64,000 nt of DNA from assembly GCA_022791685.1 (NCBI GenBank), contig JAAVZO010000042.1:13479-77478 (forward strand). Direction: 5' to 3'. The notes beneath the pieces are model-generated. The model saw nothing but the letters and a program-made list of their open reading frames with translations. It had not been told where the DNA came from and did no database searches. The DNA is from Clostridiales bacterium. GTDB taxonomy: Bacteria; Bacillota; Clostridia; Oscillospirales; CAG-272. Both the position numbers and the translations under genes were made by a program. Every line of letters starts with the position of its first letter. The stretch's first letter is position 1. Below are positions 10,329 to 47,724 of this stretch, piece after piece.

Positions 10329-10363
10329 ATGCCGATACGAGTAATCGTATCGGCATTATTTTT
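10329..10363. terminator. Bidirectional terminator between convergent carB-dapF and an oxidoreductase gene
   Basis: Stem atgccgatacg / cgtatcggcat (10329-10339 / 10346-10356), with an A-run upstream and a T-run downstream. Confidence 0.75.
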
Positions 10364-11438: not shown

Positions 11439-11441
11439 AGT

Positions 11442-12131: not shown

Positions 12132-12142
12132 AATAACCTCTA

Positions 12143-12892: not shown

Positions 12893-12902
12893 ATTCTTCT
12901 CC

Positions 12903-13937: not shown

Positions 13938-13954
13938 TTTTAACTCCAGTAACG

Positions 13955-15385: not shown

Positions 15386-15396
15386 AATTCTCTCCT

Positions 15397-16860
15397 TTAT
15401 TCTGCGGCTTTATTTAAGTTTTCCATCCCATTCTCCCAGAATGAACGCATACGTTCAAGATATGAGGTAATATTGCCGTTGCTCATCTGGAGTATATTGT
15501 TCGGCATATCACCGGCGGAAAATGTACTTCCATAGCAGAATGCAAAGTCAGTCGTCATACCTTCGCGAATAAGCGCCAGCATTTCCGGCACGTCTTCATC
15601 GCGTGTATATTTGGCTTCAAGCGCTACCTCATAGTAAGCCGGAACAACATCAATCATGCTGTAGTAACTGAGCGCTTCCATAACGCGGCAGGTAAGGTCG
15701 ATATCACTCGCAGTTTTCGGGATAACAAGCAAGTCAGATGAAGTACCTATTTGCGTGTGATATTTCTCTTGTGTCTCATCATACTTCGGCATTGGGATAA
15801 GTCCAAAATCAGACTTCATATTGCGCATAAGCTCACTTTCGGTCACATATAGATATGACGCATGGAAAAGCGCTCGGTCTTCGGTAAACGCCGATACATA
15901 TTGATTAAAATCAACAGCTCCAAAATTAACTATCAAGCCTTCATTATCCTTCACTGCCATAAGCTTATCATAGATATTGGCAAGTCTGTCAGTTAAACCA
16001 ATAAAAACTCTTGTTCCGCTGTCATCTACATCAAAGACTTTTATTTCTGTTGCGGTAAGAAATGTACGGTACGGCACTCCCTGCGTGTAGAAACCGACAC
16101 GGTCATCGGTTTCCGTAATCTTGCCGTCGTTGTTAAGGTCTGCTGCTACTGCCTCAGACATTTCGAGAAGCTTGTCTACCGTCCATTTCCCACTGCGCAC
16201 AAGATCATACGGATTTTCGAGCGAGAAATCCTCGATTACCTTTTTATTAAAGTACATAACAGTGCAGTCTTTATAAAGCGACAGATTCGCGTCGCCTATC
16301 GCGCAGTAGAGCTTGCCGTCGCCAATAGAGAGATTTTCAACTATATCTGATATCCACCACGGATTTTCAAGATTCAAATCGCTTTGAGAAGTAAGCTCAA
16401 CTAAAACATCATTGAGTATCAAAGGCGTTGTGCAGGCAACAAATCCAGTGACTAAATCATAGTCACTGTCGCCAGCCATAACCGAGTTTATGACAAGCGA
16501 ATTGTACGTATCTCTCTGTTCCCAGTCATCAGACTCATATTGATAAGTGAAGTTGATGTTGAATAGCTCCTCAACCTTCTTGCTGCGGTTATAAACCTTG
16601 TCGTTTACAATTTCTCCGTTTGATTCAGATACAAACTCGTAGCTCTTTTCAAGCGGAACAAGAATATTAAAATCGCGTCCGCCGTTATCCTCCGGCTGAA
16701 TACCAAGCGCCGTTCCGCTTGATTCAGAGTCCTGAATAGAACCCCCCCCCGAACTTTCGTCGTTCGTATCAACGTCATTCGGTGTTTCACCATTGCCGCA
16801 AGCGAACATTGACGCTGTCATTAAAAGCAGCAAAATGGATGTTATTGTGCGTTTTTTCAT
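15397..16860 (-). CDS. Lipoprotein, ABC-transporter extracellular solute-binding protein (487 aa)
   Basis: Signal peptide with a lipobox (LLLLMTASMFAC), a Ser/Gly/Asp-rich linker, then SBP-like sequence. GGAGG RBS. It is a paralog of the broken gene at 51273-52720. Confidence 0.8.
   Translation of the reverse strand: MKKRTITSILLLLMTASMFACGNGETPNDVDTNDESSGGGSIQDSESSGTALGIQPEDNGGRDFNILVPLEKSYEFVSESNGEIVNDKVYNRSKKVEELFNINFTYQYESDDWEQRDTYNSLVINSVMAGDSDYDLVTGFVACTTPLILNDVLVELTSQSDLNLENPWWISDIVENLSIGDGKLYCAIGDANLSLYKDCTVMYFNKKVIEDFSLENPYDLVRSGKWTVDKLLEMSEAVAADLNNDGKITETDDRVGFYTQGVPYRTFLTATEIKVFDVDDSGTRVFIGLTDRLANIYDKLMAVKDNEGLIVNFGAVDFNQYVSAFTEDRALFHASYLYVTESELMRNMKSDFGLIPMPKYDETQEKYHTQIGTSSDLLVIPKTASDIDLTCRVMEALSYYSMIDVVPAYYEVALEAKYTRDEDVPEMLALIREGMTTDFAFCYGSTFSAGDMPNNILQMSNGNITSYLERMRSFWENGMENLNKAAE
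16742..16750 (-). repeat. G9 homopolymer (C9 on plus strand) inside the SBP linker, in frame (encodes GGG)
   Basis: Direct count of nine consecutive C at 16742-16750. It encodes the GGG of ...DESSGGGSIQD... just after the lipobox. Confidence 0.95.
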
Positions 16861-16930: not shown

Positions 16931-16945
16931 TAGAAATTAAAAAAT

Positions 16946-17030
16946 CGTACCAGAACATTATACAATATGTTCTGGTACGATCTCACATATTTCAATAAGA
17001 AAAAATCCCATGCCTAAGCATGGGATTTTT
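16946..17030 (-). terminator. Two tandem rho-independent terminators ending the upstream seven-gene operon
   Basis: Hairpin 1 is aaaaaatcccatgc / gcatgggattttt (17001-17030). Hairpin 2 is a perfect 13-bp stem cgtaccagaacat / atgttctggtacg (16946-16958 / 16967-16979). On the minus strand each is followed by a T-run. Confidence 0.8.
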
Positions 17031-17059: not shown

Positions 17060-18118
17060 TTAACCAACGATACCGGAACGCTCGATACCACCGATAAGGT
17101 ATCTCTGCATGAACACGTAAACGAGAAGCAGAGGAGCAAGTATCAGCAGACCGCAGGTGTTGCGGATCGCGGACTCATACAGGTTCTGAGCTGCATATGC
17201 AGTGTCGAGTGTACGAGGGATCTGGATAATGTTAGGCATCATTACCTTCGAAGCCTTTGTGAAGAAGATGGTAGTGTAGAAGTTATCAGTCCACTGCCAT
17301 GAGAACGCAAAGAGGAAGATAGTGATCATCATCGGAACAGAAAGCGGGAGAATGATCTGGATGAAGGTTCTGAATGTGCCGCTGCCGTCGATGTATGCCG
17401 ACTCTTCAAGCTCATCCGGAACGCCGTGGAAGAACTGACGCATCATGAAGATGTACAGACCGTTCTTAAACGCAAGTCCGCCGAGCGAAAGCAGTGCGAG
17501 CGGCCAGTAGGAGTTATTCAGGTTCAGTGAAGTGAACGGGATAACATTTAATCCTTCAAATACGCCGCCTCCAAGCAGATTGAAAATGCCGAGGATATCA
17601 AAGTATCTGAACTTCATGAACATTGAAAGCTGAAGTGTTCTGTGAGGAACGACCATCGTAAAGATTACGAGGAAGAATATCAGCTTGTTGCCCTTGAACT
17701 TGAACTTTGCGAGACCGTAGCCGATAAGGCAGCAGATAAATGTCTGGATAAGTCCGCAGAGAACAGAAAGGGTCAATGTATTCAGAAGTGCTTCAAAATA
17801 CTTATTCTGTGAAATGATAGCCTTGTAGGTATCAAGCGTAGGATATTTCGGAATCAGCTTTACCGTAACATCTACGAAGTCCTCTCGGCTCATGAATGAG
17901 CCGGAGATCTTCGCGAAGAACGGAAACAGAATTACATACGAAATACCGATAAGAAGTACGAGTCTGAATATTACCCAGACAACGTTCTTGAGAAAACGCA
18001 TACTCAAGAATTTTGACTTGAGTCTTTCTTTGAGAGGGGTTCTTTCAAACTCAACTCTAATTTTGTTTTTGCTCTCCTTCATTACGCGGGGAGCCTTTGG
18101 TACCTGTTGAGAATTCAT
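17060..18118 (-). CDS. Carbohydrate ABC transporter permease (MalG-like, with N-terminal extension)
   Basis: Multi-TM protein with the EAA-type loop region (DELEESAYIDGSGTFRTFIQIILPLS). AGGAGGG RBS. Confidence 0.85.
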   Translation of the reverse strand: MNSQQVPKAPRVMKESKNKIRVEFERTPLKERLKSKFLSMRFLKNVVWVIFRLVLLIGISYVILFPFFAKISGSFMSREDFVDVTVKLIPKYPTLDTYKAIISQNKYFEALLNTLTLSVLCGLIQTFICCLIGYGLAKFKFKGNKLIFFLVIFTMVVPHRTLQLSMFMKFRYFDILGIFNLLGGGVFEGLNVIPFTSLNLNNSYWPLALLSLGGLAFKNGLYIFMMRQFFHGVPDELEESAYIDGSGTFRTFIQIILPLSVPMMITIFLFAFSWQWTDNFYTTIFFTKASKVMMPNIIQIPRTLDTAYAAQNLYESAIRNTCGLLILAPLLLVYVFMQRYLIGGIERSGIVG

Positions 18119-18130
18119 TTATTTCCCTCC

Positions 18131-19099
18131 TTAATCGCGTTTCTGGTAGAATACGTAAGCACTGAGAACAGCAGCAACGATACCGATTATTACTATAACA
18201 ATCAGGAAGTATACCCACGCCATCGCCGAGCTCAATACGTTACCGCCTGCCTGGTCGTAAACGGTTGCAATATACGTCATGACCTTGTTAGACTGAGATG
18301 TGAACGAGTCAATTACTGTATAAATCGAGTTTACGAGAATCATCGGGCTTATCATCGGGAAGGTAATCTTCCAGAAGGTTTCCCAAGCGGTCGCACCGTC
18401 TATTTCGCACGACTCATAGATAGCCGGCGAGATCGACTGAAGACCTGCAAGGTAAATAAGCATCTGGACACCAGAACGGTTGATAATGTTGTAAATGTTA
18501 TTGACCATCTGAACAACATAGTCAACAAGCTCTGTACCAACCTTCATGTTATCGAACAATCGCTCAATATCGACCGCTGACAGAATCTCGTTAGTCGTAT
18601 TCTGTCCAGAACCGTCTTCGATTCCAGTGTCAGTCATGTAGTCGACCATGGTGTTTGCCTGGTCGATCTTGTCGATAATACCGGTCGAAATGATGACAGG
18701 TATGAAGAAGATCGCACGGAATGCGGCACGTCCAACCATCTTCTGGTTAAGCAGGACCGCCATAAAGAGCGAGAAAATTACGATCGCAGGGATATCAAAG
18801 ATAAGCTGCTGAATACCAGACGCGAGCGTCTGAACAAAGTTCGGGTCGACGAAGAGAGCTTCCTGATAGTTATCCCAGCCGACAAACTCAAGCGTGTAAC
18901 CGCCGCCCTGTCCAATTTTAATCTTGTTGAAGCTGTACTTTATCGAGTCGATAATTATCGGAAGATAAATAACAACAAAGCCGAGAACAAACGGTAATAC
19001 GAAAAACCAACCTGCACGTGCTTTACGTGCATCAAGAGAGGCTCTACGTTTACGTTTCTTCGGAGCACTGACATTTGTAAGCTTTGCTTCGCTATTCAT
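18131..19099 (-). CDS. Carbohydrate ABC transporter permease (MalF-like)
   Basis: Six-TM pattern with the loop AIYESCEIDGATAWETFWKITFPMISP. The stop overlaps the RBS of the next permease. Confidence 0.85.
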   Translation of the reverse strand: MNSEAKLTNVSAPKKRKRRASLDARKARAGWFFVLPFVLGFVVIYLPIIIDSIKYSFNKIKIGQGGGYTLEFVGWDNYQEALFVDPNFVQTLASGIQQLIFDIPAIVIFSLFMAVLLNQKMVGRAAFRAIFFIPVIISTGIIDKIDQANTMVDYMTDTGIEDGSGQNTTNEILSAVDIERLFDNMKVGTELVDYVVQMVNNIYNIINRSGVQMLIYLAGLQSISPAIYESCEIDGATAWETFWKITFPMISPMILVNSIYTVIDSFTSQSNKVMTYIATVYDQAGGNVLSSAMAWVYFLIVIVIIGIVAAVLSAYVFYQKRD

Positions 19100-19118
19100 T
19101 TAATACACCTCTCTTATT

Positions 19119-22118
19119 TTACTTTGCTGCAACAAAATCGAGAGCACCTATTGTATAAGTCTTGCCGTTGTCTTCAACGGTGATCTCAAAGTTATTGTAA
19201 TTAAGGATGAACGACTTGCCGCCTTCGTAAGTTACCTTAACGATTCTTCCATCATCAGAGGTATACTTCGTGTAATTATAACCCGTAGTAGTCTCCTCAG
19301 CTTCATCGTTAGTAGTTACAGACGGCGCGGTAGTTCCGAGTCTCTGTGCAAGCTTCTCAGCCTTTTCAGCCTTCTCAGCAGCAAGCTTTGCAGCTTCGTC
19401 AGCCGCTTTCTTTGCTTCTTCAGCTGCGATCTTATCGGCTGCGATCTCCTCAGCGGACGGCACGCGCTCGCCTATAAGGAATTCATGACCAACGATCTTC
19501 TTAGTCTGGAGTCCTGCCATGATCTCGTTAAGCTCATCGTAGAGCGAAACGACTTCATCATACCAGATATCGAACGATACCGAATAATATTTGTTGAACT
19601 CAACGTCTTCTTTCAGAAGAGAAGTATTCTGCATCGAAAGAGTGAAGTAGAGCGACGCACCGTTTTCAATTGCCTTGAGGAACTCATACTGAGTATCGCC
19701 CGCCATATTGATCGCAGTGCCTGCGAAATTCATGCTTCCGTGGAGTACCATTCCGACAAACGGAACCGACTCACTTGCATTGGAATAACGGCTTGAGTCA
19801 AGTGAAACATTCAGAATATGGTCTGCATACTGAAGCGCATATGCGTTTCCGCCTTCGATCATTACATTCTGCTGATTTTCCTTGATATCTTTGAGGAGGT
19901 CAACGGTGAATTCCTTTGAGTCCTCACGGTTGTACGGATCCTTCTTATCGAAGTCCGAGTTCAGGTCGGTACCAAGGGTCGCAACCGAGATACCATTCGG
20001 GTTGAGTGCCGAATACTTCTCATTGAAGTGATCATAGAAGTAGCTGAATACCGATGGAGAAACTGCAAGCGAGTAACCTCTTACAAACGACTGGAGAGTC
20101 GAATCGTAATAACGCTTACTGGTATAACGGTTATCCATCGTCTTTACGAGGTGCTTTCTCATCGAAACACCGTCAAACATCTCAAACATACCGATGTTAG
20201 CAAAGTCAAAGTCAGGATATACACCGATGTTGTTGGCATTTGCATACTCAACAAATTCAGTAAAGCCCTTGTTTCCGCCAACGACCTTTTCAAACTTAAC
20301 GTTATACGGAGCAGTATCATTCATACCGCCGTTTGCATAACCAGTAAGCTTGTAGTTTACATTTGTGATACCTGCTTCAGAAAGTTTTGTGTACATATCC
20401 TTGAGGTCATCAAATGTAGTAAGAGGCTTTAATACCTCGACCGGTATCGAAAGAATTCTTTCGATATCCTCCATGCAGCCAAACGACTCAATGTAGAGCG
20501 GGATAGAATCCTTGACATCAGTGAGATCACTGAGGATGCCCTTATCCTTAAGATAATCTCTGTATGCCTTAGCCATACCTACATATGATGCTTCATAGTA
20601 GTCCTTTACGCCGCTTTCAGCTGCAAGCTCATCATCAGTGAGCATGATGTACTTTATACGGTAACTTCCAGTATATTTACGCTCGGAAACAACTGTATAA
20701 GTTGCATTCTGACCAACCGAAATTGCTTCTGCAAGGTTGTAAGAGTCCTTCGGACGAGGAGAGAAGGTGGTGTAAACTGTGTTGTACTTGTGTGTTGTTC
20801 CGCCGTGGTCAGTACTTATCTGAGCAAGAGCGTCGCCTTCTTCGATTATTGCGAGGAAGCCGTTTGTCTTTTTCTCATAAGGCTCGCCATCAGCGGTTTT
20901 GATCTCTGCGTAAACAACAGATTCTACCTTAGACTCAGGGTCTACGACAGTTTTAGCTACTGGCACATTGGTTTCGACAATACCGTAAACCGGCATTCTC
21001 ATTACCTCTCTGTGCTGACCGCTTACCTGCTGGTACGCGTAGTCCTCACCGTAGAGTCTTCCGGAAAGAGTCAGCGGCTTGCTTCCGATATCTTCGAAAC
21101 GAACCAGTGCACCTGAACCATCCGGGAAGAAGGTGTATCCGCTGTAATCACCGGAACCAGCTCCAAAGTAAGGAAGCATGGAGATCCAGCTCAGCGAGAA
21201 TGAACTTTCGTCGAAACGAATGCCGTTTGCAGGAAGTCTTACATTGAGAGAGCCATCATCGCTGAGGCTGTACTCAAGTGAAAGTCTGAACAATACAGGT
21301 GCTGCGTCAGTACCTTCATACTGAGTTATGGTATGATCCTCTTCAAGAGTTTCATATGTATACTCAGGGCAGTAGGTCTTGATGTAGCCCTCGATCTGAT
21401 TAAGCTCACGATCCGAAGCGTACGGGTCGAAGATGTAAATTGCCATCTCCGAACATATCGGGAAGGTAGCTATCAGCTCGTTCTTTGCACGCTCAGTCAG
21501 ATCCGGATCAAAAGGATCCTTCAGCTGATAGAACGCTTCCATCTTGGATCTTGCAGTTCCTTCAGGAATGTTTGCCATAATAAGCTCTTGGAAGCGTTCT
21601 GCATTGATCTGCTTCGGAACGAGCTTACGGGTCTCTTCACGCCCCATTACGTATTCGACACGAACACCATTTTTGATCTTCTTAACTTTGATCTGACCTC
21701 TCTGGCAAGCTTCTTGGAAGCTGAAGAGATCAAGCTCTGAGTTGTTGTCGGTATACTTAATACGGATCTGAGAGAGAAGCTGTCCTTTTATACTCTCAGA
21801 AGCGCCGGTCTGTGAAACATCGTATGGATTCGAGAATATGATCTGTCCTGTTGCCTTGTTGACATATGCGATCTCACCGGATATCGGCTCAACATACAGC
21901 TCGTAGCCTCCATTGTCGAGGTACTTAGTCATAGTTGCAAGCTTATCCTCAGGAGTTGCATAAACCTGTGTGATATAGTTTATCGTTGGCAGGTTTGTAT
22001 CTGGGTCAAGTCCGGGAACCAGCGGTTCTTCGTCTTCCGCGAAAACCGGAAGAGCGGAGAGCATTCCGAAAACCATAACAACAGTCAGGAACGCCGATAA
22101 TAATCTTATTTTTTTCAT
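19119..22118 (-). CDS. Large secreted protein of unknown function (999 aa). Possibly the family annotated as DUF5696 (recollection, unverified).
   Basis: The start was set at MKKIRLLSAFLTVVMVFGMLSALPVFA (ATG 22118, GGGAG RBS), avoiding overlap with the upstream gene. It has a signal peptide. The central and C-terminal parts have a glycoside-hydrolase-like TIM-barrel feel. An Ala/Glu/Lys-rich coiled segment (AADKIAAEEAKKAADEAAKLAAEKAEKAEKLAQ) lies near the C-terminus. Confidence 0.6.
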   Translation of the reverse strand: MKKIRLLSAFLTVVMVFGMLSALPVFAEDEEPLVPGLDPDTNLPTINYITQVYATPEDKLATMTKYLDNGGYELYVEPISGEIAYVNKATGQIIFSNPYDVSQTGASESIKGQLLSQIRIKYTDNNSELDLFSFQEACQRGQIKVKKIKNGVRVEYVMGREETRKLVPKQINAERFQELIMANIPEGTARSKMEAFYQLKDPFDPDLTERAKNELIATFPICSEMAIYIFDPYASDRELNQIEGYIKTYCPEYTYETLEEDHTITQYEGTDAAPVLFRLSLEYSLSDDGSLNVRLPANGIRFDESSFSLSWISMLPYFGAGSGDYSGYTFFPDGSGALVRFEDIGSKPLTLSGRLYGEDYAYQQVSGQHREVMRMPVYGIVETNVPVAKTVVDPESKVESVVYAEIKTADGEPYEKKTNGFLAIIEEGDALAQISTDHGGTTHKYNTVYTTFSPRPKDSYNLAEAISVGQNATYTVVSERKYTGSYRIKYIMLTDDELAAESGVKDYYEASYVGMAKAYRDYLKDKGILSDLTDVKDSIPLYIESFGCMEDIERILSIPVEVLKPLTTFDDLKDMYTKLSEAGITNVNYKLTGYANGGMNDTAPYNVKFEKVVGGNKGFTEFVEYANANNIGVYPDFDFANIGMFEMFDGVSMRKHLVKTMDNRYTSKRYYDSTLQSFVRGYSLAVSPSVFSYFYDHFNEKYSALNPNGISVATLGTDLNSDFDKKDPYNREDSKEFTVDLLKDIKENQQNVMIEGGNAYALQYADHILNVSLDSSRYSNASESVPFVGMVLHGSMNFAGTAINMAGDTQYEFLKAIENGASLYFTLSMQNTSLLKEDVEFNKYYSVSFDIWYDEVVSLYDELNEIMAGLQTKKIVGHEFLIGERVPSAEEIAADKIAAEEAKKAADEAAKLAAEKAEKAEKLAQRLGTTAPSVTTNDEAEETTTGYNYTKYTSDDGRIVKVTYEGGKSFILNYNNFEITVEDNGKTYTIGALDFVAAK

Positions 22119-22140
22119 TACTATTACTCCCATCCTGTTA

Positions 22141-24267
22141 TTACATTCTATAAGTAATTTCAATTACGATACTGGAAATGAAGCTTACTATCTTAGCAAG
22201 CAGCGTGGAGAAGAGGACACCAATAAACATGATAACACCCATACCCACGATAGTACCAAGCGAAGTAACTACATTCTTCGAGAAGGTGTAGTCATGAGTT
22301 ACCATTGTACCGAAGAAGATAAGCAGTCCGCACCAAATGAATGCGAATGTAACAAGAAGATTGATAATGGTTGCTTCACTTGCTACAGCAAAGTTAGAGA
22401 TGATGACCGAAGGAATGATAAGAATCGGCAGCGGAACAAGTGCATAGCAGGTAGCAACAAAGATATCCTTGAAGCTTCCTTCGCCGTCGAACAGAGTTGT
22501 CAGACACCAGTTAGCAACACTCCAGAGAAGTACTGGTACCAATACTGCGGTAAGCTGTATCAGTATTGTCGAGTAGCCCTGACGCGGATTGAATACATAT
22601 CCGGTACCAACGCTCTGATAATAGAACGTGAGGACTGCAAGTGCAAGCCATACAAATGCTGCACGAACCGAACCGCGGTACTCATGCTTCAGATCCCAGT
22701 AGCCATCGAACGGGTGAAGAATAAGGTGATTTGCGTAGATGAGCTCTTCCCAGAAGGTTTTTCTTCCCTTCTTGAGCTGAGTCTTTTTATTGAGCTTAGC
22801 TGCATATTTGTTGAACAGAACGAGCAGCACAACTATGGCGATAACGATTATCGGAATAAGTATGATATACTTAGAAATCCAGTTCTTACGAATTTCCTTA
22901 AAGGAATCCGAGTAGTTGGCAGTATCGTAAGCTGACTTGTAATAATCGAGCGACTCCTCGTACTCTGCGCTGCGGTAGAGGCTCTTACCAATACCGATGT
23001 ACGCAGTATCAAAGTTGTTATTACGCTTGAGAATTTCAGTCCAGTAGTTTACAGTCGTATCATACTGACGCTCATTTGTATTCTGTATAGCAGAGAGAAG
23101 CAGGTCGCCGTACTCGGTGCGTCTGAATACTGTAATGTTATCCGAAGTCTTGTCAAGAACAAGAATGTCGTTATCAAGGTAAGCAATAGCTTCGATAGAC
23201 TGAATGTTACCGAGCTGCTGACCTTTATCGCCGAATATGAAGAGCAGATTGCCTTCAGCGTCGTAAGTGTAGATCTTACTTCTCTTTTCATCTATCAGCG
23301 ACCAGGTGTTTTCCGGACCGATAGCAACGTCAATTATCTTAGAAGGACCAGCGATTTCTGCGGTCGATACGTTGGTGATATTTACTTCACCGCCAGGACC
23401 GAAGAAGCCGTTACGCTTCATGATATCCGCGCCAGCAGTGTTGAGCTTTTTAACAGGTGCGTATGTACCGCTCTTGTCATTGATAGCCGACTGCTGCTTG
23501 TTTTCGTCGATAGATGAAGTTGTTACATAGATGAAGCCTTTTTCATCTATGGTGATGTTGTTGAACTCAGTCGAGACGTACTGCTGAGAAAGCTTTCTCT
23601 GCTCATCAGTCTGGAAACGTCTCCAAAGAATTGTCATAGCGTCGATGGTAACCTTCTGAGCTCCAATAAAGCCCTGGAAGTCACCTTCTTCATTGATCGC
23701 AATAACGCCCATGTAAGTTGTGGACGAAATTACGTAGATACGTCCGTAAGCATCAACTGCAAGCGCTACCGGCTTGTAAATAGATCCTGCCGGAAATACA
23801 TCCGAATCCGGTTCTTCTATTATCTTATAGAAGGTACCGTCAAGATTGTACATAACTATACGGTTGTTGTCAGTATCTGCTACATAAATCTTTTCGTCAG
23901 TTACATAAACGCCCGACGGATTGTTAAGAGAATCCGGAACGCCCTGTCCGTTGACAAACTCATTGATGTAGAATTTCAGCTTGAAGTATCTGTCAAGTAC
24001 TACAATACGGTTATTTGCCGCGTCAGCTATATAAACGTTTTTGTTTCCGTCGACAAAGAGGTCGCGCGGATCGTCTATTGCGGGAGATACGCCCATATAT
24101 GCTGAATCGATCTGTCTGTCAGGCGTATATGCGTCAGGAGACATAAGAGCAAAGCCGTCAATGGAGTAGGTGTAGGTGGAATACGGTGTGATAGCGCCTA
24201 ACGGGAGGCAGCCTATCGCAAGAATCAAGCAGGCCGCGAGGGCAAGTATTCTTGATAACTTTTTCAT
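22141..24267 (-). CDS. Lipoprotein-signal / NHL-repeat beta-propeller / TPR-like / Yip1-type multi-pass membrane fusion protein (708 aa)
   Basis: N-terminal signal with an AIGC lipobox. Repeated NHL-like units (ADAANNRIVVLD, ADTDNNRIVMYN, YVISST..., YVTTSS...). A TPR-like helical stretch precedes a TM helix (YIILIPIIVIAIVVLLVLF) at ~470. The C-terminal ~200 aa have five hydrophobic helices typical of Yip1-domain proteins. Confidence 0.7.
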   Translation of the reverse strand: MKKLSRILALAACLILAIGCLPLGAITPYSTYTYSIDGFALMSPDAYTPDRQIDSAYMGVSPAIDDPRDLFVDGNKNVYIADAANNRIVVLDRYFKLKFYINEFVNGQGVPDSLNNPSGVYVTDEKIYVADTDNNRIVMYNLDGTFYKIIEEPDSDVFPAGSIYKPVALAVDAYGRIYVISSTTYMGVIAINEEGDFQGFIGAQKVTIDAMTILWRRFQTDEQRKLSQQYVSTEFNNITIDEKGFIYVTTSSIDENKQQSAINDKSGTYAPVKKLNTAGADIMKRNGFFGPGGEVNITNVSTAEIAGPSKIIDVAIGPENTWSLIDEKRSKIYTYDAEGNLLFIFGDKGQQLGNIQSIEAIAYLDNDILVLDKTSDNITVFRRTEYGDLLLSAIQNTNERQYDTTVNYWTEILKRNNNFDTAYIGIGKSLYRSAEYEESLDYYKSAYDTANYSDSFKEIRKNWISKYIILIPIIVIAIVVLLVLFNKYAAKLNKKTQLKKGRKTFWEELIYANHLILHPFDGYWDLKHEYRGSVRAAFVWLALAVLTFYYQSVGTGYVFNPRQGYSTILIQLTAVLVPVLLWSVANWCLTTLFDGEGSFKDIFVATCYALVPLPILIIPSVIISNFAVASEATIINLLVTFAFIWCGLLIFFGTMVTHDYTFSKNVVTSLGTIVGMGVIMFIGVLFSTLLAKIVSFISSIVIEITYRM

Positions 24268-24278
24268 CTTTACCCTCC

Positions 24279-25151
24279 TTAGTCCTTCATACCCGATGAA
24301 CCCATCGTTTCGATGATGTTACTCTGGCTTATAATAAATACGATGATCGGAACCGCCATCATGATAACCTGAGAAGCGGCAGCGGCACCAGCACGAGCAA
24401 TACCAGCGTTTACGATCTGGCTTATCGCGTAGTTAAAGGTTTTAAGCTGTTCTGAATAAATGTAGATCGAGTTGCCTGCATTCCAGAGACCCTGGAAGGA
24501 GTAGATTATAAGTGTCAGCCATGCCGGCTTAACCATCGGCATCGCGATCTTCAAGAATGTAGTAAACTCAGACGCACCGTCGAGTCGGGCAGATTCAAGC
24601 ACTGCATCCGAGACTGATGTCTCCATAAAGTTCTTCATAAGGTAAAGTCCAAGTGAAGAGCCCCATGCAGGGATGATGATCGCAAGATATGTATCGACCC
24701 AATGGAGTGTACTCATGGTCAGGAAGTTTGCAATAGCAGTAACTGTCGAGTTGAACATGAGCGAGAGGACAACGACCTGGAACATCCAGCCGCGTCCGGG
24801 GAATTTGATCTTTGCAAGCGCATAAGCTGCGAGCGAAGAAAGAAGCAGGTTACCGAGTGTGCCAAGCACTGAGATAAGCACAGTATTAAAGATATATCTT
24901 GAGAATGGTACCCAAGATGTGCTCATCAGCTGGAACAGGTCAGTATAGTTTTTAAGAGTCGGGCTCATAACGTAGAAACGCGGCGGGAACATCCACAACT
25001 CATCAAGAGGCTTCAGAGACTGCATTACTACATAAAGCATCGGCAGGAACATGAACGCGCCCATAAGCACGAGCAGTACGTTGATTCCTATATCGCCGCC
25101 AACCGAACGGTTAAGGACAACCTTGTGTTTTCTGGTTCTTAATCTTGCCAT
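24279..25151 (-). CDS. Carbohydrate ABC transporter permease (MalG-like)
   Basis: Six-TM protein with the loop ESARLDGASEFTTFLKIAMPMVKP. Confidence 0.9.
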   Translation of the reverse strand: MARLRTRKHKVVLNRSVGGDIGINVLLVLMGAFMFLPMLYVVMQSLKPLDELWMFPPRFYVMSPTLKNYTDLFQLMSTSWVPFSRYIFNTVLISVLGTLGNLLLSSLAAYALAKIKFPGRGWMFQVVVLSLMFNSTVTAIANFLTMSTLHWVDTYLAIIIPAWGSSLGLYLMKNFMETSVSDAVLESARLDGASEFTTFLKIAMPMVKPAWLTLIIYSFQGLWNAGNSIYIYSEQLKTFNYAISQIVNAGIARAGAAAASQVIMMAVPIIVFIISQSNIIETMGSSGMKD

Positions 25152-25152
25152 C

Positions 25153-26112
25153 TTACTGTCCTACCTTCGATAATAGTTTTTTGATCACAAGGTTAGCGCC
25201 CACCATTATTACGAACAGTACGACCGCAATAGTTGATGAGTAACCGACCTCAAATCGCTGTCCACCATAGTCCTCGAGGTGATGCATGATGGTGTGTGCG
25301 GCGTAGTTTACCGACGGGAAGCCGGCAAGCGCGGTAACAACAGCACCGAAACCGAAAGACTGGGTTATGGACATGACCGCACCGAACATCAGCTGCGGCT
25401 TCATTGTCGGAAGTGTGATATACCAGAGCTCCTGCCATCTGTTCTTTACACCGTCGACCGCGCCAGCCTCATAGAGCGACTTATCGATCGTCTGAAGACC
25501 TGCGATAAACGAAAGGAAGGATGTACCGAGCGAAGTCCAGAGCGCAACTACTATACATAGTCCCATAACGTATTTTTCATCGTGGAACCAGAGTATCGGC
25601 TCATTTATAAAGCCTAATTCCATCAGCCAAGCATTTGCATAGCCGTAGGAGTCATCCGAGAAGATTATTGTCCAGATCAGGTATACCGAACCTGAAATAG
25701 ACGGAGCATAGAATACGAGTGTTACGAGCGCACGGATCTTTGGAGTAAGCTCATTGATGAACCATGCGATCAAAAGTGACATGAAGTATGATACAGGACC
25801 GGTGATAGCCGCGAAAACAAGCGTGTTCTGGCAGGCTGTCATAAAAATGTCGTCATCAAGGAACAGTCTGATATAGTTGTCCATGAAGACAGGCTCCGGA
25901 AATTCAAGCAGGTTGAACTGAGTGAAGCTTAAGATTATTGACAAAAGTACCGGGAAGACTGTGAAGATAAGAAAGATCAGCATAAACGGCGCGATCATTA
26001 AGTATGCCGTTTTGTTGCGTGCGATTTCTTTCAGCGTCCACTGTGCTTTTGTCATGTCCTTACGAGCTGTCGGCTTCGGTTTGTTTGCAACCGCCGCTGC
26101 ATTTTGTGACAT
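25153..26112 (-). CDS. Carbohydrate ABC transporter permease (MalF-like)
   Basis: Six-TM protein with the loop YEAGAVDGVKNRWQELWYITLPTMKP. Its stop is 1 nt from the next start. Confidence 0.9.
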   Translation of the reverse strand: MSQNAAAVANKPKPTARKDMTKAQWTLKEIARNKTAYLMIAPFMLIFLIFTVFPVLLSIILSFTQFNLLEFPEPVFMDNYIRLFLDDDIFMTACQNTLVFAAITGPVSYFMSLLIAWFINELTPKIRALVTLVFYAPSISGSVYLIWTIIFSDDSYGYANAWLMELGFINEPILWFHDEKYVMGLCIVVALWTSLGTSFLSFIAGLQTIDKSLYEAGAVDGVKNRWQELWYITLPTMKPQLMFGAVMSITQSFGFGAVVTALAGFPSVNYAAHTIMHHLEDYGGQRFEVGYSSTIAVVLFVIMVGANLVIKKLLSKVGQ

Positions 26113-26167
26113 TAGCGTTCTCTCCTTAATTACAGATTTTTATTCACTGTCAAATTTCCTTGTGCAA

Positions 26168-26203
26168 ACCGACATTATTGCCAATATCAGACATAATGTC
26201 GGT
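26168..26203 (-). other. Intra-operon stem-loop after the giant SBP gene
   Basis: Perfect 11-bp stem accgacattat / ataatgtcggt (26168-26178 / 26193-26203) in the 125-nt gap between the SBP and the first permease. On the minus strand only a weak T-run (TTTG) follows. Confidence 0.5.
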
Positions 26204-26237
26204 CCACACAATTTCATCTTGGCAGATGGTTCAGATG

Positions 26238-29204
26238 TTAATTGTCGTTGTTCTTGTTAGCTTCTCTGTCAGCGAGAGTCTCACCGAGCTCGAGAGTATC
26301 AAGACCAAATTCCTTACGTTTTCTCGTGATTTCCTTATTGATATCATCAACATATCCGAGAAGCTCCTCAACAGGATCCTTATTGTCGTTATACGCGCTG
26401 AGGAAAGCGAACTGTACATAACGAGTGATAATGTATCCGCCGGGCATTTCAGGAATTGCAGCGAGGTTGTTGTACTGCGCCATAATATTTTCAAGGTCAG
26501 TTGTCGACCATGGCAGCGACTGGAGCGCTTCCTTGTTAGCAGTAGCATACATAGCGCCCTGACCAACGATAGCGACCATTTCATTAGCGTAAGTCGACTG
26601 GGTGTCAGCCGAAGTATACCAATCCATGAATCTCCATGCGTTCTGCTGGTTCTTACAACCGTTCATCATGATCATAGTAGTCAGAGTCGAAATAGAAGTA
26701 TTATTGATCTTTCCATTTTCATCTTCCATACCAATGATCGGTACGAATTCCCAAAGGTCACGAATTTCGGTTGCGAAAATCGAGAGCTGGTTGTACATTG
26801 CAACGTAGTCAGCAAGCATGATCGGCATTTCACCAGTTCTGAAACGGTTTGCCGCATCATAAGTTACCGGGAACGAATACTGAGTAAAGTACGAGCAAAG
26901 TGTGTCGAATGCCTCAAGAGCTAAGTTAGAATCGAAATTGATTCTCATACCATTGTCGGCATACTGTTCACCGCCCATCTGGTAAAGGAACATCTGATAA
27001 CCAGCAAGCTCCTTCGGGATACCAACGATCATGTTGTTGTACTGGAGATACGGTACTATCGACATGAGGTCGTCCCAAGTCTTAGGAATATCAACTTCAA
27101 GCTCAGCGAAAACGTCCTTGCGGTAGAACATCATGTTGAAGGTCTGTGTTTCAGGCAGACCATAAGTGGTACCATAAAGTGTTACAGGAACCATCGCAGC
27201 TGAAGAGAAGCGCGAGGTTACTTCATCAAATGTATCGAAATCGTTCAGCGGGATTACAGCGTTACGGATCGCATACTCGACCGGTATACCCTGTGCATTA
27301 CTAAGCGCGATGTCAGGACCTGTTCCAGAAAGAGTTGCCGGAAGCAGTGTTCCTGCTGCAACGAGCTTCAGATTTACACCGATGTTTGTCTTAGAAGTAA
27401 ACTCATTATCTACCATTGAACGAATAACCAGCGCCTGGTCACGTCCAGTAGGAGTCCAAACTTCAATTGTATCTTCCTTCTCAAGCTTGATCGTCGCACC
27501 GAGGTTCGAGTAATCAGTAAAGAAGGACATAATGAATGAACCGATCTCAAAGAATGCTGCTTCAAAGAAATTAGCCTCAGCCTTTGGAAGCTTTTCGTTA
27601 GCCGGCTGAATTGCTATGTAGTCGAAATATACCGGCTGGCTTCTTACGTTGTTCAGCCAAGTACCGAGCGTACCGATATAGCTCTTAAGTGTATCCATGC
27701 TCTTTGCGACTTCATCCTCGTCTGTAGCCATGTTTCTGAGGACACGCGCGATATTATCGAGCTGTGCAACGTTACTACCCTTCTGACCGTTTATTTCGGT
27801 AAGAAGCTCTGAAATAGCAGTAAGCTCGAGGTACTGAGCATAGAGGTCTTTAATGGTATCCGGAATAAGATTTCTAAAGTTATAGTCACGATAATCGTCA
27901 GGGTCAGCACCGGTGATCTGAAGTATCTTCAGGTAATCGGCGTTGATAGCGGTCAGTGTATCCTGAACGCGTCCGATAATCTCGCTCATTCCGCCAAGAA
28001 CTACTTCGAACTGGATTGTATATTCTTTTCCTTCTTCAAAGTAAAACTGGAATGTGTTTGTACCATCATTGAGCGCCTTAGTCTGCCAGTTATCCGAGAA
28101 ATCAAACTGGAGATAGTTAGCTTCTTCAAACGGGATCTCGCCGTTTATACGAATACGGCGCGAAGTGTACATACCAGAGAGGTCAGCCTGCTTATAGCGC
28201 GGTACGATCTCATAGAGACCTGACTTTTCAACAGTAAATGAATACTCTACCCACTGACCAACTGTCTGCCACTTAGTACTTCCGAGCGCGTTCAGCTTGG
28301 AGAGCGATGTGCTCTGCGGCTGAGTAAGTGCCGAAGTTCTGTCGTTAGACGGATAAATAGTACTATCCGATGTAGCATCTGGGTACTCAGCCTGAATAAT
28401 TACCTGATTAGCTCCAGTAGCCGGCTGATATCCTTTAGCCGCATAATCAGCCTGAACTTCTTCCCACGTAGGAAGATCCTCGTAAGGATAGAGCGTGATC
28501 GACTTGATCACAAGCGATTCACGAGCAGATTCAAGCGATATTGTATGCTTTCCGGCTTCAAATACGATCTGGTACGGATCAATGTCATAGCCTGTGGAGT
28601 CGCTTACAGTGTAGGTTCTCCACTCACCAGAAATCTCCTTCTGAGGCTTAATATCGTTTCCGTTTATATCTGTTTTAAAAGCGGGATTTCCGTTTTCATC
28701 TGTCAGATACTGATCGCGCCACACTTTTGTAATTGCAAGATATCTTGCGCCTTTGAACGGATACTCGCCGTCTACGCGAAGCTTACGTTCAATTGCGGTC
28801 GATTTTCCGTCAATCGGGAATGAGTACTCGATATCTACCGCATATTTTCCGGTCGATGGAATATCAACATCCCATACTACAGTACCGGTCGCTGGGGTCA
28901 AGAGCGCATCGCCAGTAGAACCGTTATAGTTCTTGACGACCTCAACCTTAGCGGTGGTCTGTTCAGCATTGTAATTTGCTGCATCTATCTTTATTGACGA
29001 TCTGCCCTTAGGTACATTTGCATTACGAATCGCATAATCGGAATAGCTTTCCGCGTTGAGAAGGTCGCGAACATCAGCGATATTATAGCTGACAGTAGAC
29101 GAATTCTCATCATCGGCTGCATATGTACCGACCGCAAGGGACGATCCGAGCATCATAAATGATAGAAAACCAGCAATTAACCTTGTTAAATTGGTTTTTT
29201 TCAT
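26238..29204 (-). CDS. Giant extracellular solute-binding protein with two N-terminal CBM-like modules (988 aa)
   Basis: Signal peptide MKKTNLTRLIAGFLSFMMLGSSLAVGTYA. Two beta-sandwich CBM6/35-like segments (...STGKYAVDIEYSF...RKLRVDGE... and ...KSGLYEIVPRYKQ...RRIRINGE...). The C-terminal ~450 aa are SBP-like. AGGAGG RBS. It is the first gene of the operon. Confidence 0.7.
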   Translation of the reverse strand: MKKTNLTRLIAGFLSFMMLGSSLAVGTYAADDENSSTVSYNIADVRDLLNAESYSDYAIRNANVPKGRSSIKIDAANYNAEQTTAKVEVVKNYNGSTGDALLTPATGTVVWDVDIPSTGKYAVDIEYSFPIDGKSTAIERKLRVDGEYPFKGARYLAITKVWRDQYLTDENGNPAFKTDINGNDIKPQKEISGEWRTYTVSDSTGYDIDPYQIVFEAGKHTISLESARESLVIKSITLYPYEDLPTWEEVQADYAAKGYQPATGANQVIIQAEYPDATSDSTIYPSNDRTSALTQPQSTSLSKLNALGSTKWQTVGQWVEYSFTVEKSGLYEIVPRYKQADLSGMYTSRRIRINGEIPFEEANYLQFDFSDNWQTKALNDGTNTFQFYFEEGKEYTIQFEVVLGGMSEIIGRVQDTLTAINADYLKILQITGADPDDYRDYNFRNLIPDTIKDLYAQYLELTAISELLTEINGQKGSNVAQLDNIARVLRNMATDEDEVAKSMDTLKSYIGTLGTWLNNVRSQPVYFDYIAIQPANEKLPKAEANFFEAAFFEIGSFIMSFFTDYSNLGATIKLEKEDTIEVWTPTGRDQALVIRSMVDNEFTSKTNIGVNLKLVAAGTLLPATLSGTGPDIALSNAQGIPVEYAIRNAVIPLNDFDTFDEVTSRFSSAAMVPVTLYGTTYGLPETQTFNMMFYRKDVFAELEVDIPKTWDDLMSIVPYLQYNNMIVGIPKELAGYQMFLYQMGGEQYADNGMRINFDSNLALEAFDTLCSYFTQYSFPVTYDAANRFRTGEMPIMLADYVAMYNQLSIFATEIRDLWEFVPIIGMEDENGKINNTSISTLTTMIMMNGCKNQQNAWRFMDWYTSADTQSTYANEMVAIVGQGAMYATANKEALQSLPWSTTDLENIMAQYNNLAAIPEMPGGYIITRYVQFAFLSAYNDNKDPVEELLGYVDDINKEITRKRKEFGLDTLELGETLADREANKNNDN

Positions 29205-29430
29205 TAACCTTTCCTCCTGCCAAGAATTTTACTTTGAAGGGAACATTGTAGCTTTTGCAGCTCCATTCCAGTGATCTTAACAAATCCATCAAAGCAAGCG
29301 TGGCATAATATGCAGACGGATCCAAACGATCTCTGGACAAAGCAATGAGCCAATCCTACAAGCAGACATAACTGAGCGTCGGACACCATATGCACAGTAT
29401 TGCCCTACTTGAAGATTATTTCATACAAAT

Positions 29431-29459
29431 ATAATATCATAACAGCGGCCAAAAGTCAA
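29431..29459 (-). promoter_or_regulatory. Sigma-70-type promoter of the seven-gene ABC operon
   Basis: On the minus strand: TTGACT (29454-29459), 17-nt spacer, TATTAT (29431-29436). It predicts a ~220-nt leader before the ATG at 29204. Confidence 0.5.
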
Positions 29460-29943
29460 TAGCGGGCTTTTTATAGAAAGTTCAGGTCAGGACTTCAAAA
29501 AGGGTTCATTTAGTCGTCACTTAGCCGTTCAAAATTTCAATTACACTTTAGTTCGCTTCACTGTAAACATTTTACAATGTGTAATTTGTGTGGTAGTAAT
29601 TTTAAATTACCTATATTCCAGTCGTTTTCACCTGAAAATATCGAATATTTGCAATAAATAGATTTATATTTTCACTATATGTAATTTTTATTTACTCACT
29701 TTTTCAATGCTTTCATTTGTGACATTGCTACATAAACACGTCTATCTTTTGTAACACTTGCACAAATTTTGTGATGAATTTTCTACACCTATACAAAATG
29801 CACAAATTCATCGCAATTTCACAACTTTTTACCTGTTTTTGGAATAATAAGCTAATATTGTATGTATTTATGCACTCATCATTACTTAAAGGATATCATT
29901 TGTAAACAAGCCCAAATGATTATTACGACAATGTAACAATATG

Positions 29944-29976
29944 CAAAACAGCACCGCTTTATTGCAGTGCTGTTCA
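29944..29976 (-). terminator. Terminator downstream of iscU
   Basis: Stem aacagcac / gtgctgtt (29947-29954 / 29967-29974). On the minus strand it is followed by TTTTGC. Confidence 0.6.
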
Positions 29977-29988
29977 TATATTCACTTA

Positions 29989-30420
29989 TTAGTGCTTCTT
30001 CTGACAGGTCGCGCAGTGTCCATCACAGTTCTCCATGATGTCGTGCTTAATACCCTTCTTGTCATAGTAGTTCGCAATAGCAGCCTTTACAGCTTCCTCT
30101 GCAAGTACCGAGCAGTGAATCTTCTGAGGCGGCAGTCCATCAAGAGCTTCTATAACTGCCTTATTTGTAAGCTTGAGCGCCTCATCAACAGTCTTACCTT
30201 TAATAAGCTCGGTAGCCATAGACGAAGTAGCTATCGCTGCACCACATCCAAATGTCTTGAACTTTACATCTTCAATTACATTATCATCATTTATCTTCAA
30301 GTACATCTTCATGATGTCACCGCAGACTGCATTGCCGACCTCGCCGACTGCATCTGCATTTTCAATTTCACCTACATTACGCGGATTAGCGAAATGATCC
30401 ATTACTTTCTCGCTGTACAT
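29989..30420 (-). CDS. iscU: Fe-S cluster assembly scaffold protein (NifU/IscU type)
   Basis: Three conserved Cys contexts are present: GNAVCGD, FKTFGCGAAIA and PPQKIHCSVLA. Confidence 0.9.
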   Translation of the reverse strand: MYSEKVMDHFANPRNVGEIENADAVGEVGNAVCGDIMKMYLKINDDNVIEDVKFKTFGCGAAIATSSMATELIKGKTVDEALKLTNKAVIEALDGLPPQKIHCSVLAEEAVKAAIANYYDKKGIKHDIMENCDGHCATCQKKH

Positions 30421-30439
30421 TATATTTATTCCTCCAATA

Positions 30440-31633
30440 TTATTTTACGTTATTTTTCAAATATTCCTCGTAGAGTGGGCTCATCTCGCGCAGACGCTGA
30501 ACAATGCCCGGCAACTTTTCGAGAATATAGTCGACATCCTCATCAGTATTTTGACGGCTGATCGACAGACGAAGTGAACCATGTGCAAGCTCTACCGGCA
30601 CACCGATCGAAATAAGCACGTGCGACGGTTCGAGTGAAGTCGACGAGCAAGCGGAACCGGTCGAAGCACAGATACCAGCCATATCGAGCAGCAGCAGCAG
30701 ACTCTCGCCTTCGATAAACTCGAACGATATATTCACGTTGCCAACGAGACGGGTTGTCCGCGAGCCGTTCAAACGCGAGTGCGGAATTGAGGTAAGGATA
30801 CCGTCAATCAGACGATCACGCATTTTTTCGACACGTTTATTCTCATCCATGCCATTTACCGCAACTTCAAGCGCCTTTGCAAGTCCTACGATATATGCAA
30901 CATTCTCCGTACCGCCGCGCTTGCCGCGCTCCTGACCACCGCCGTCGACAAGATTCAGTATTCTGACACCAGTCTTGATATACAGCGCACCGATTCCCTT
31001 CGGGGTATGGATCTTATGTCCGGAAAGGCTGAGCATATCAACTCCAAGCTCAGCTACATTTATCGGAACATTTCCGACTGCCTGTACTGCGTCAGTAAAT
31101 ACGAGCGTCTTCGGATTTTTCGCTTTTACTGCTGCCGCGATTTCCTTTATAGGCTCAATAGTTCCGACTTCATTGTTCGCAAACATAACTTCAACAAGCG
31201 TAGTATCATCGCGCATAGCGTTTACAACAGCTTCAGGAGTTACAAGTCCGTCGCTGTCAACATCAAGATATGTTACCTCAAAGCCTTCCTTTTCAAGTGC
31301 TTCAAGCGAATGCAGAACTGCGTGGTGCTCGATTTTAGTCGAAATTATATGCTTTCCGCGATTCTGGTTTGCGTGAGCCGCGCCCTTTATTGCCCAGTTA
31401 TCGGCTTCCGAGCCACTGGCTGTAAAATATATCTCATTCGGCTTTGCAGCTCCAAGCAGCGATGCGATTTTTTCGCGTGCTTCTGTGATAGCTGCCTTAG
31501 CCTCACGTCCCTTCTTATGAAGGCTCGACGGGTTGCCATAGCCATCCTTGAAATAAGGCATCATTGCCTCGAGAACTTCCGGCGAGGTTGATGTCGTTGC
31601 CGCATTGTCTGCGTAAACGAATCTTTCTTCCAT
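30440..31633 (-). CDS. nifS: Cysteine desulfurase (NifS/IscS type)
   Basis: PLP-lysine motif [12 protein letters not shown] and active-site STGSACSS. The start was set at [14 protein letters not shown] (ATG 31633), which has an AAGGAGA RBS. Confidence 0.9.
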
Positions 31634-32948: not shown

Positions 32949-33151
32949 TTTAGATTGCTCCTATGTTATTTAACTACATATTATAATTATACCACAATTC
33001 TAACATTATTTCCATACAATTATTAAATTAACGCTTGAAAACTTGCCCTGAAATATTATATAATATTTATGTAATTCGCCAACCTTTTATAAAAAATAAG
33101 CACTTAATATATGTAACGCCAAAAAGCGTAACAATAACGGAGGGAACCAAA

Positions 33152-47669: not shown

Positions 47670-47724
47670 ATAAAGCTACACCATATTAAAGAAATGAAAA
47701 AATAGACAAGAAAGGAATATGATC

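Follow-up and report, generated by a model that had tools for sequence, protein, structure and literature searches.

A conserved gene cassette of the Bacillota with two ABC permease pairs, a DUF5696 protein and an NHL/Yip1 membrane protein is a probable glycan-uptake module

Among described systems, the closest to the locus reported here are the CUT1 importers (TC 3.A.1.1), such as MalEFG, GanSPQ and the mannan importers of Roseburia and Faecalibacterium. In the Firmicutes these importers usually share an ATPase that is encoded elsewhere. The locus is an operon of seven genes on the minus strand (17060-29204) of a 64,000-nucleotide (nt) stretch of DNA, called the window throughout, from contig JAAVZO010000042.1 of a Clostridiales bacterium (GCA_022791685.1, positions 13,479-77,478 of the forward strand). 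Like the CUT1 importers it encodes a family-1 solute-binding protein (SBP) and MalF/MalG-type permeases with EAA loops; an ATPase of the shared MsmK/MsmX type is likewise usually found elsewhere, and several lineages have cytoplasmic glycosidases and LacI or two-component regulators close by. Unlike them, it has two permease pairs, an SBP of about double size that carries two CBM35-like carbohydrate-binding modules (CBMs) and is not a lipoprotein, and, between the pairs, obligatory genes for an NHL-propeller/Yip1 membrane protein and a DUF5696 protein. In the open-access full-text literature we found no description of such a cassette, nor of a CUT1 system combining two permease pairs, a doubled CBM-bearing SBP and obligatory NHL/Yip1 and DUF5696 proteins. 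Taken singly, the parts are familiar (CUT1 importer, GH129-like fold, NHL propeller, Yip1 domain); as far as we found, their combination is new. An earlier, sequence-only reading of the window had described the system as undescribed and linked to glycan uptake, which agrees with both the literature and the sugar-locus context in distant lineages. Based on the results below, we consider it probable that the operon is one copy of a deeply conserved glycan-uptake module of the Bacillota, an elaborated CUT1 system with two ATP-binding cassette (ABC) translocators, which most likely imports complex carbohydrates.

The seven open reading frames (ORFs) are closely packed and follow one another, 5' to 3', in the order SBP, permease 1F, permease 1G, NHL/Yip1, DUF5696, permease 2F and permease 2G, with intergenic gaps of 125, 1, 11, 22, 19 and 12 nt. 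An ORF check of the window reproduced the seven minus-strand ORFs, the coordinates and the gaps that had been claimed, and Pfam confirmed the domain calls made at that stage, namely a CBM-fused SBP, four permeases and a protein joining NHL and Yip1.

A one-genome-per-species collection scanned with the DUF5696 protein held at least 535 places with a relative, and the best 80 of these loci were fetched. They belong mostly to Candidatus Flemingibacterium, Oscillospiraceae and other Clostridia metagenome-assembled genomes (MAGs) from animal and human guts. All seven genes are present in the same order and on the same strand in 63 of the 80; the remaining 17 are interrupted by contig ends and none breaks the order. 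The cassette was also found in 10 distant loci from Lachnospiraceae and Paenibacillaceae, and thus in both Clostridia and Bacilli. Two of these copies are plasmid-borne (on pNP243 of Butyrivibrio fibrisolvens D1 and on a 509-kb plasmid of Paenibacillus cellulosilyticus), and the others come from P. alkalitolerans, P. catalpae, Cohnella nanjingensis, a Roseburia MAG, an Acetatifactor-type contig and three other metagenomic contigs. Neighbouring genes overlap by 4 nt, stop codon with start codon, at the Yip1/DUF5696 and DUF5696/permease 2F boundaries in Paenibacillus and Butyrivibrio, and all DUF5696 genes examined sit within the cassette. An order kept in close and distant loci, together with overlapping gene boundaries, therefore excludes chance juxtaposition. 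The gene order is thus conserved far beyond this genome, and the idea of a single unit with its two uncharacterised proteins as integral members is upheld; the idea of a system restricted to anaerobes is not, as Paenibacillus and Cohnella also carry it. Two cassette contigs (L033 and L042) are filed under Methanocorpusculum sp. and Selenomonadaceae, respectively, labels that are probably MAG binning errors because the layout is near-identical to that of the Clostridia contigs.

The components differ in how well they are conserved between the window and most of the distant copies. The first permease pair is the most similar, with identities of 57-61% for permease 1F and 54-61% for permease 1G, followed by permeases 2F (39-43%) and 2G (35-43%), the giant SBP (36-38%) and the NHL part (32-35%). 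The DUF5696 protein is the least conserved component (26-29%). Identities to P. cellulosilyticus are lower for all components, for instance 42% for permease 1F and 34% for permease 1G.

The giant SBP (26238-29204, minus strand; 988 amino acids, aa) is about twice the usual size for such a protein. Pfam, structure-database matches and an orthologue alignment gave its layout: a type-I signal peptide without a lipobox Cys, CBM35-like modules at about residues 70-240 and 270-410, a helical linker at about 410-560 that is strongly conserved among orthologues, and a family-1 SBP domain at about 565-960. This last domain matched SBP_bac_8 (E 5e-20) and SBP_bac_1 (E 9e-17) over residues 595-874, and solved sugar SBP structures matched the protein with a best E of 2.9e-9. 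When the N-terminal half was scanned alone, a CBM35-like module scored 30 bits against the CBM_35 cutoff of 28, and a second, diverged copy was recognised as an internal repeat (E 5e-6). A missing lipobox Cys is unusual in a Gram-positive SBP. Unlike the giant SBP, the accessory SBPs found at related loci are lipoproteins.

All four permeases carry BPD_transp_1 and an EAA loop, with the motif EAA-x3-G-x9-I-x-LP legible in each, and their best NCBIfam matches are UgpA/UgpE and MalF/MalG. Permease 1F (25153-26112, minus strand; 319 aa) is MalF/UgpA-like and permease 1G (24279-25151, minus strand; 290 aa) is MalG/UgpE-like. Permease 2F (18131-19099, minus strand; 322 aa) has a diverged N-terminal half, and permease 2G (17060-18118, minus strand; 352 aa) has an N-terminal extension. 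Identity is 23% between 1F and 2F and 24% between 1G and 2G; the two pairs are therefore ancient paralogues and not the product of a recent duplication. A MalK/MsmK-type ATPase was found neither in the operon nor among the 44 window ORFs scanned, a set that left out a few larger ORFs, mainly beyond 57.8 kb. In P. cellulosilyticus, a UgpC/MsmX-type ATPase gene lies immediately 5' of the giant SBP gene.

The NHL/Yip1 protein (22141-24267, minus strand; 708 aa) was characterised from its Pfam NHL and Yip1 matches, an AlphaFold2 (AF2) model and a Foldseek search of that model. It comprises an N-terminal signal or anchor, a six-bladed NHL propeller at about residues 30-383, TPR-like helices (385-446), a transmembrane helix (470-497) and a Yip1 domain of five transmembrane helices that extends to residue 707. 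The Yip1 match (PF04893) scored 53.8 bits against a cutoff of 28.6 over residues 515-681, and the AF2 model (mean predicted local distance difference test, pLDDT, 72.8) places five long helices beyond residue 505. The NHL repeats were detected by Pfam (E 1.4e-10) and by PDB sequence matches to Thin, TRIM71 and PknD down to E 2.8e-13. With Foldseek, TM-scores on the target reached 0.75-0.77 to NHL domains; the matches were to generic NHL propellers only, the Yip1 part yielded nothing informative, and no top match was enzyme-like (virginiamycin B lyase stood at rank 39). Just ahead of the first Yip1 helix, the motif HPFDGxWDLKHExRGS (residues 518-533) forms an invariant block in 28 homologues. 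We infer that the basic loop bearing this motif is cytoplasmic, and the permeases or the ATPase may make contact through this motif. NHL and Yip1 are separate genes in 8 of the 10 distant loci, and the split falls within this putative cytoplasmic loop, just upstream of the motif. The propeller is predicted to be extracellular and to sit on the Yip1 membrane domain.

The nearest precedent for a bacterial Yip1-domain protein encoded with an ABC transporter is YknW, a Yip1-family accessory subunit of YknWXYZ, to which the NHL/Yip1 protein was compared by shared Pfam family alone. It differs from the present protein in that YknWXYZ is a MacAB-like exporter of a peptide toxin and YknW lacks an NHL propeller. 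YknWXYZ of Bacillus subtilis has been described as a four-component transporter (PMC4887032).

The DUF5696 protein (19119-22118, minus strand) is 999 aa long from its ATG, and the ORF as delimited mechanically extends to a TTG at 22163. Its match to PF18952 is strong (495 bits against a cutoff of 25.6; E 3e-148). The family is large, with 5,462 cluster representatives at the 50% identity level (E ≤ 1e-3) and lengths up to about 2,500 residues, and no mention of DUF5696 or PF18952 was found in open-access full text. In the window the protein consists of a signal peptide, an N-terminal beta-rich region, a (beta/alpha)8 barrel at about residues 510-870, a stalk (889-926) with a linker, and a conserved C-terminal beta domain (950-999). 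Foldseek searches with an AF2 model (pLDDT 78.5, predicted TM-score 0.76) gave as leading matches DagB (5opq, E 8.5e-27), the 3,6-anhydro-D-galactosidase of Zobellia galactanivorans, and NagBb (5wzn, E 2.5e-19), the GH129 alpha-N-acetylgalactosaminidase of Bifidobacterium bifidum, with TM-scores on the target of 0.67-0.69; members of the glycoside hydrolase (GH) families GH101, GH31 and GH36 ranked behind them and are more distant likenesses. Similarly, a profile built from three branches of the DUF5696 family matched NagBb (E 5e-6 and 1.6e-5) and DagB (E 2e-4) among PDB sequences. The DagB alignment is collinear over the N-terminal strands, the junction into the barrel and the C-terminal beta domain (the last piece is not significant by itself), and NagBb is matched over one continuous segment that runs from the junction into the early barrel. 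Single-sequence and 33-sequence profiles found nothing significant among PDB sequences (the close-relative profile reached NagBb at E 0.32).

Taken together, predicted structure and profile comparison indicate that the DUF5696 protein is a remote homologue of GH129/DagB-type glycosidases, and DUF5696 is best treated as a family separate from, but related to, GH129. The statement that the operon contains no recognisable glycoside hydrolase accordingly holds at the level of Pfam and fails once this remote likeness is considered, and neither of the two proteins that had been called unknown falls in a characterised family. Structure prediction and Foldseek gave NHL-propeller matches for the 708-aa protein and GH129-like DagB/NagBb matches for the 999-aa protein. 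In the published DagB structure, whose domain order DUF5696 matches, a beta-sandwich at the N-terminus is followed by a TIM barrel and then by an Ig-like domain; D486 corresponds to D435, the nucleophile of NagBb, and DagB activity also needs an Asp of the N-terminal domain (PMC5698469). DUF5696 shares with NagBb and DagB the beta-sandwich, (beta/alpha)8 barrel and C-terminal beta domain, and its invariant barrel and N-domain Asp residues recall DagB D486 and D202. D333 (in the sequence PDGSG), D359, D722 and E818 are invariant in 34 sequences from all branches; N804 is invariant in the alignment, and N758, H793 and R731 are nearly so. Residue 755 was considered as the acid/base and rejected, being E in the window, D in close relatives and not conserved in Paenibacillus. 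Unlike NagBb and DagB, to which identity is about 10%, DUF5696 has an extra N-terminal region, a variable stalk and no acid/base equivalent that we could find. Furthermore, NagBb and DagB are stand-alone enzymes, whereas every DUF5696 gene examined lies inside an ABC transporter cassette. From these comparisons, catalytic competence of the DUF5696 protein appears plausible.

Many DUF5696 homologues have a helical stalk rich in A, E and K, about 40 to more than 550 residues long, between the barrel and the last beta domain of about 50 residues. Genes with variable stalks occur in L039, L047, L050, L051, L053, L054, L056, L062, L063 and L065, and the Lachnospiraceae and Paenibacillus proteins have no stalk. 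A correlation between stalk length and SBP length (Pearson r 0.68) was set aside, as one or two clades drive it; the extra SBP length consists of CBM insertions and a C-terminal helical tail, with no counterpart to the stalk.

The genomic context of the distant copies connects the cassette to sugar use. In Paenibacillus and Cohnella, a LacI gene and an accessory SBP gene precede the cassette, and GH26 and/or GH113 follow it. In the Roseburia MAG, the order is LacI, a small GH53, the cassette, an accessory SBP and a large lipoprotein GH53. In Butyrivibrio, the Acetatifactor-type contig and a third contig, GH43 precedes the cassette and one or two accessory SBPs follow it, with or without GH35/GH42; a sensor kinase, with or without a response regulator, lies upstream in the first two, and the third has LacI downstream instead. 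In P. cellulosilyticus, the UgpC/MsmX-type ATPase gene precedes the cassette. Of the 10 distant loci, 5 have both a regulator and a glycosidase beside the cassette, and 9 have at least one of them. The operon of the window itself holds no ATPase and no regulator, as had been noted, and no regulator adjoins it in the window; in the distant lineages LacI or two-component regulators and, once, an MsmX-type ATPase are adjacent. Signal peptides are absent from the neighbouring GH26 and GH113 proteins, the small GH53 and the Butyrivibrio GH43, and therefore the substrate must enter the cell as an oligosaccharide. This arrangement of a conserved uptake core with lineage-specific glycosidases and regulators is functionally analogous to the Sus-like systems of Bacteroidota and to "Gram-positive PULs" (polysaccharide utilisation loci). 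Unlike Sus-like systems, the cassette has no SusC/SusD homology and would rely on ABC transport across a single membrane.

The accessory SBP of the distant loci also has a counterpart in the window. Directly after the operon terminators, a gene at 15397-16860 (minus strand) encodes a 487-aa SBP-like lipoprotein with the lipobox MFAC. The protein has no Pfam or NCBIfam match, and it is homologous to the accessory SBPs of Roseburia, Paenibacillus and Cohnella (E 1e-11 to 1e-17). By iterated search this type of SBP lies beside the cassette in all 7 distant loci searched and in only 5 close loci. An accessory SBP goes with the cassette in every distant lineage whose flanks are intact. Since the cassette adjoins such a homologue, there are probably two SBPs for the two permease pairs, in place of the single SBP first proposed to serve both. 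On sequence grounds the lipoprotein is a probable eighth component of the unit, and the seven genes are thus probably not the complete set; a GH20-like gene follows the accessory SBP gene.

How the parts would work together can be outlined as follows, where we infer complex formation, the matching of SBPs to permease pairs, catalysis by DUF5696, the role of the NHL/Yip1 protein and the substrate. With its pair of CBM35-like modules and its SBP domain, the giant, non-lipidated SBP would capture an oligo- or polysaccharide, and it would serve permease pair 1. The DUF5696 protein, with its extracytoplasmic GH129/DagB-like fold, would bind or trim glycan at the surface beside the permeases. The protein made of NHL propeller, TPR-like helices and Yip1 domain may act as a membrane organiser, its propeller facing outward and its conserved, probably cytoplasmic motif lying before the Yip1 helices. 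Pair 2 would import a second product, or the same one, and would probably be served by the accessory lipoprotein SBP where one is present, as at 15397-16860 in the window. A shared MsmK/MsmX-type ATPase encoded elsewhere would energise both pairs, and the imported oligosaccharides would be finished by cytoplasmic glycosidases that differ by lineage.

Several observations weigh against this proposal. Conservation of the giant SBP (36-38%) and of pair 1 (54-61%) is unusually high between most of the loci whose adjoining glycosidases indicate different glycans, and because of this a common ligand or a structural role fits them better than substrate-specific capture. In its own clade the cassette usually lies among housekeeping genes (nifS/nifU, carAB), and a census of the flanks of the 80 close loci found no consistently linked ATPase, regulator or glycosidase. 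The giant SBP and the DUF5696 protein appear to carry cleavable signal peptides, with no recognised surface anchor. For DUF5696, a Pfam scan at E ≤ 10 returned no GH family, GH129 and GH101 included. D722 follows a barrel strand at roughly nucleophile distance, but it lies in a loop of the model with pLDDT below 50, and no conserved acid/base residue was found in the alignment, on barrel strand 5 or otherwise. Finally, the linkages differ: GH129-type chemistry is directed at alpha-linked sugars, but the backbones attacked by the neighbouring GH26, GH113 and GH53 enzymes are beta-linked.

The sequence-only reading had envisaged one machine at the cell surface, which the proteins may form. In its fullest form, the idea is that the two translocators, the NHL/Yip1 protein, the CBM-bearing SBP and DUF5696 make up a single surface supercomplex that binds a polysaccharide, cuts or threads it, and feeds both channels. 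The cassette would then represent a new class of importer and a Gram-positive counterpart of the Sus "utilisome", with DUF5696 as a new GH family. We put this forward tentatively, as an alternative of lower probability than the reading as an elaborated CUT1 importer.

It is also possible, though to our minds doubtful, that DUF5696 is not catalytic and instead serves binding or docking, as a lid, as a receptor for pair 2 or as a stalked spacer, with hydrolysis left to other enzymes. As the least conserved component it would suit such a part, and it accompanies very different glycosidases, including those for beta-linked glycans. The missing acid/base on barrel strand 5 and the variation at residue 755 point the same way, and the helical stalk ahead of the last beta domain, with its variable length of about 40 to more than 550 residues, resembles a positioning device. 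Set against this, D333, D359, D722 and N804 are invariant over three deep branches, with N758 and H793 nearly so, and the residue pattern resembles that of DagB, in which an N-domain Asp and barrel Asp/Glu residues are needed (PMC5698469).

A third reading, which we hold to be unlikely, is that the cassette serves the cell's own envelope by recycling or remodelling a cell-wall or capsular glycan, and that the catabolic glycosidase neighbours are secondary. The housekeeping neighbours and absence of regulators in the clade of the window would agree with it, as would the presence of LytR_cpsA_psr and Polysacc_synt_2 genes elsewhere in the window, and the conservation of the giant SBP and pair 1 (36-61%) across most loci with different glycosidases suggests one common ligand. 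However, 8 of the 10 distant loci have close, same-strand plant-glycan hydrolases without signal peptides and/or adjacent LacI or sensor-kinase regulators. CBM35-like modules and CUT1 importers typically go with the capture of nutrient glycans, and two copies reside on large plasmids, a common setting for accessory catabolic loci. That two ordinary CUT1 operons merely stand beside two unrelated genes, as the resemblance of the SBP-F-G and X-F-G halves to normal CUT1 operons and the distinct paralogy of the permease pairs might suggest, is highly improbable given a gene order common to all 63 complete loci and to the 10 distant loci, from Clostridia and Bacilli alike, the overlapping gene boundaries and the confinement of every DUF5696 gene examined to the cassette.

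If the cassette is the uptake core for several dietary and host glycans in these bacteria, then a major carbohydrate route of the Firmicutes is still undescribed. Its carriers include gut Oscillospiraceae and Lachnospiraceae (Roseburia, Butyrivibrio, Acetatifactor) and soil Paenibacillaceae. The cassette raises the questions of why two translocator pairs are needed, what the Yip1/NHL protein does and whether DUF5696 is a new GH family. Cultured carriers with clear candidate substrates are at hand in the mannanase-linked loci of Paenibacillus and Cohnella, and the GH53-linked locus of the Roseburia MAG also has a clear candidate substrate.

With respect to expression signals, the operon had been described as bounded by a promoter and two terminators. 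Both terminators are strong: the tandem intrinsic-terminator-like hairpins with T-runs at 16941-17030 (minus strand), the first at 17030-17001 with 13 pairs and the second at 16984-16941 with 18 pairs, have the longest stems in a 15-kb scan. The sigma-70-like site at 29431-29459 (minus strand; TTGACT-17-TATTAT with an extended TG, 10 of 12 positions matching), 227 nt 5' of the SBP start codon, is present; as a class, promoter-like sites are not enriched in the region (31 found against 27.7 ± 6.4 expected from shuffles), and because of this the site is weak evidence alone and stands as a candidate promoter only. An Rfam scan of 16-31 kb found no riboswitch or other Rfam family in the 227-nt leader, and sub-threshold matches to Rfam leaders at the terminators were rejected as artefacts of the terminator hairpins. 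An inverted repeat, ACCGACATTAT ... ATAATGTCGGT (26161-26210, minus strand), was read from the sequence of the 125-nt gap that separates the SBP gene from permease 1F, with arms of 11 bp, a loop of 14 nt and no T run after it. The hairpin may stabilise the SBP part of the transcript or act as an attenuator.

The flanks of the cassette in the close clade are variable and mostly of housekeeping character (nifS/nifU, carAB and a ROK-family gene), and the commonest flanking families in the 80 close loci are Aminotran_5 (15 ORFs), ROK (11), GH27 (3) and GH123 (2). Directly 3' of the cassette in the window lies a six-gene cluster on the minus strand (10362-16860) that encodes the accessory SBP (487 aa), a GH20-like protein (476 aa), an unknown protein (344 aa), a PRK02947 sugar-isomerase-domain protein (249 aa), a second unknown protein (271 aa) and a GFO/IDH/MocA oxidoreductase (358 aa). 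The cluster looks like a genome-specific insertion, since carB directly follows the cassette in the closest relatives (L001-L003). The GH20-like glycosidase gene (13955-15385, minus strand; Glyco_hydro_20, E 1e-13) begins 11 nt 3' of the accessory SBP gene and is not kept next to the cassette in close relatives; from its position alone, its product is a possible partner enzyme in this genome. A ROK-family kinase gene (closest to NanK and NagK models) and an RpiR/MurR-type regulator gene (3108-4993, plus strand) lie beside carA, about 12-14 kb downstream of the 3' end of the cassette, and ROK genes recur 5' of the cassette in 11 related loci. A gene for GH123, a beta-N-acetylgalactosaminidase family, is found at 47719-49368 (plus strand; E 3e-108), and GH123 and GH27 genes adjoin the cassette in a few related loci. 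Together, the GH20-like, GH123, ROK and RpiR genes hint weakly at a glycan containing N-acetylhexosamine (HexNAc), perhaps N-acetylgalactosamine (GalNAc), in this organism.

Other features of the window were seen in passing. A class-V aminotransferase (nifS-like) gene is followed by a 143-aa ORF (29989-30420, minus strand), which from its size and position only we take to be nifU-like. A Cys-rich 206-aa ORF at 29941-30561 (plus strand), which at first seemed to be kept 5' of the cassette in relatives, was rejected as a conserved gene, as it is an antisense shadow of that 143-aa ORF; it looks non-coding. The 1353-aa ORF at 6251-10312 (plus strand) encodes a complete carbamoyl-phosphate synthase large chain with a C-terminal diaminopimelate-epimerase domain (PF01678, E 5e-57); the relatives L001, L003 and L009 have equally long ORFs in that position, and the gene looks like an unusual CarB-DapF fusion. 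Two further ORFs of about 550-575 aa (33035-34759 and 49466-51124, both plus strand) have N-terminal sigma-70 regions 2/4 and long unannotated C-terminal parts, and may be sigma/anti-sigma-like fusions.

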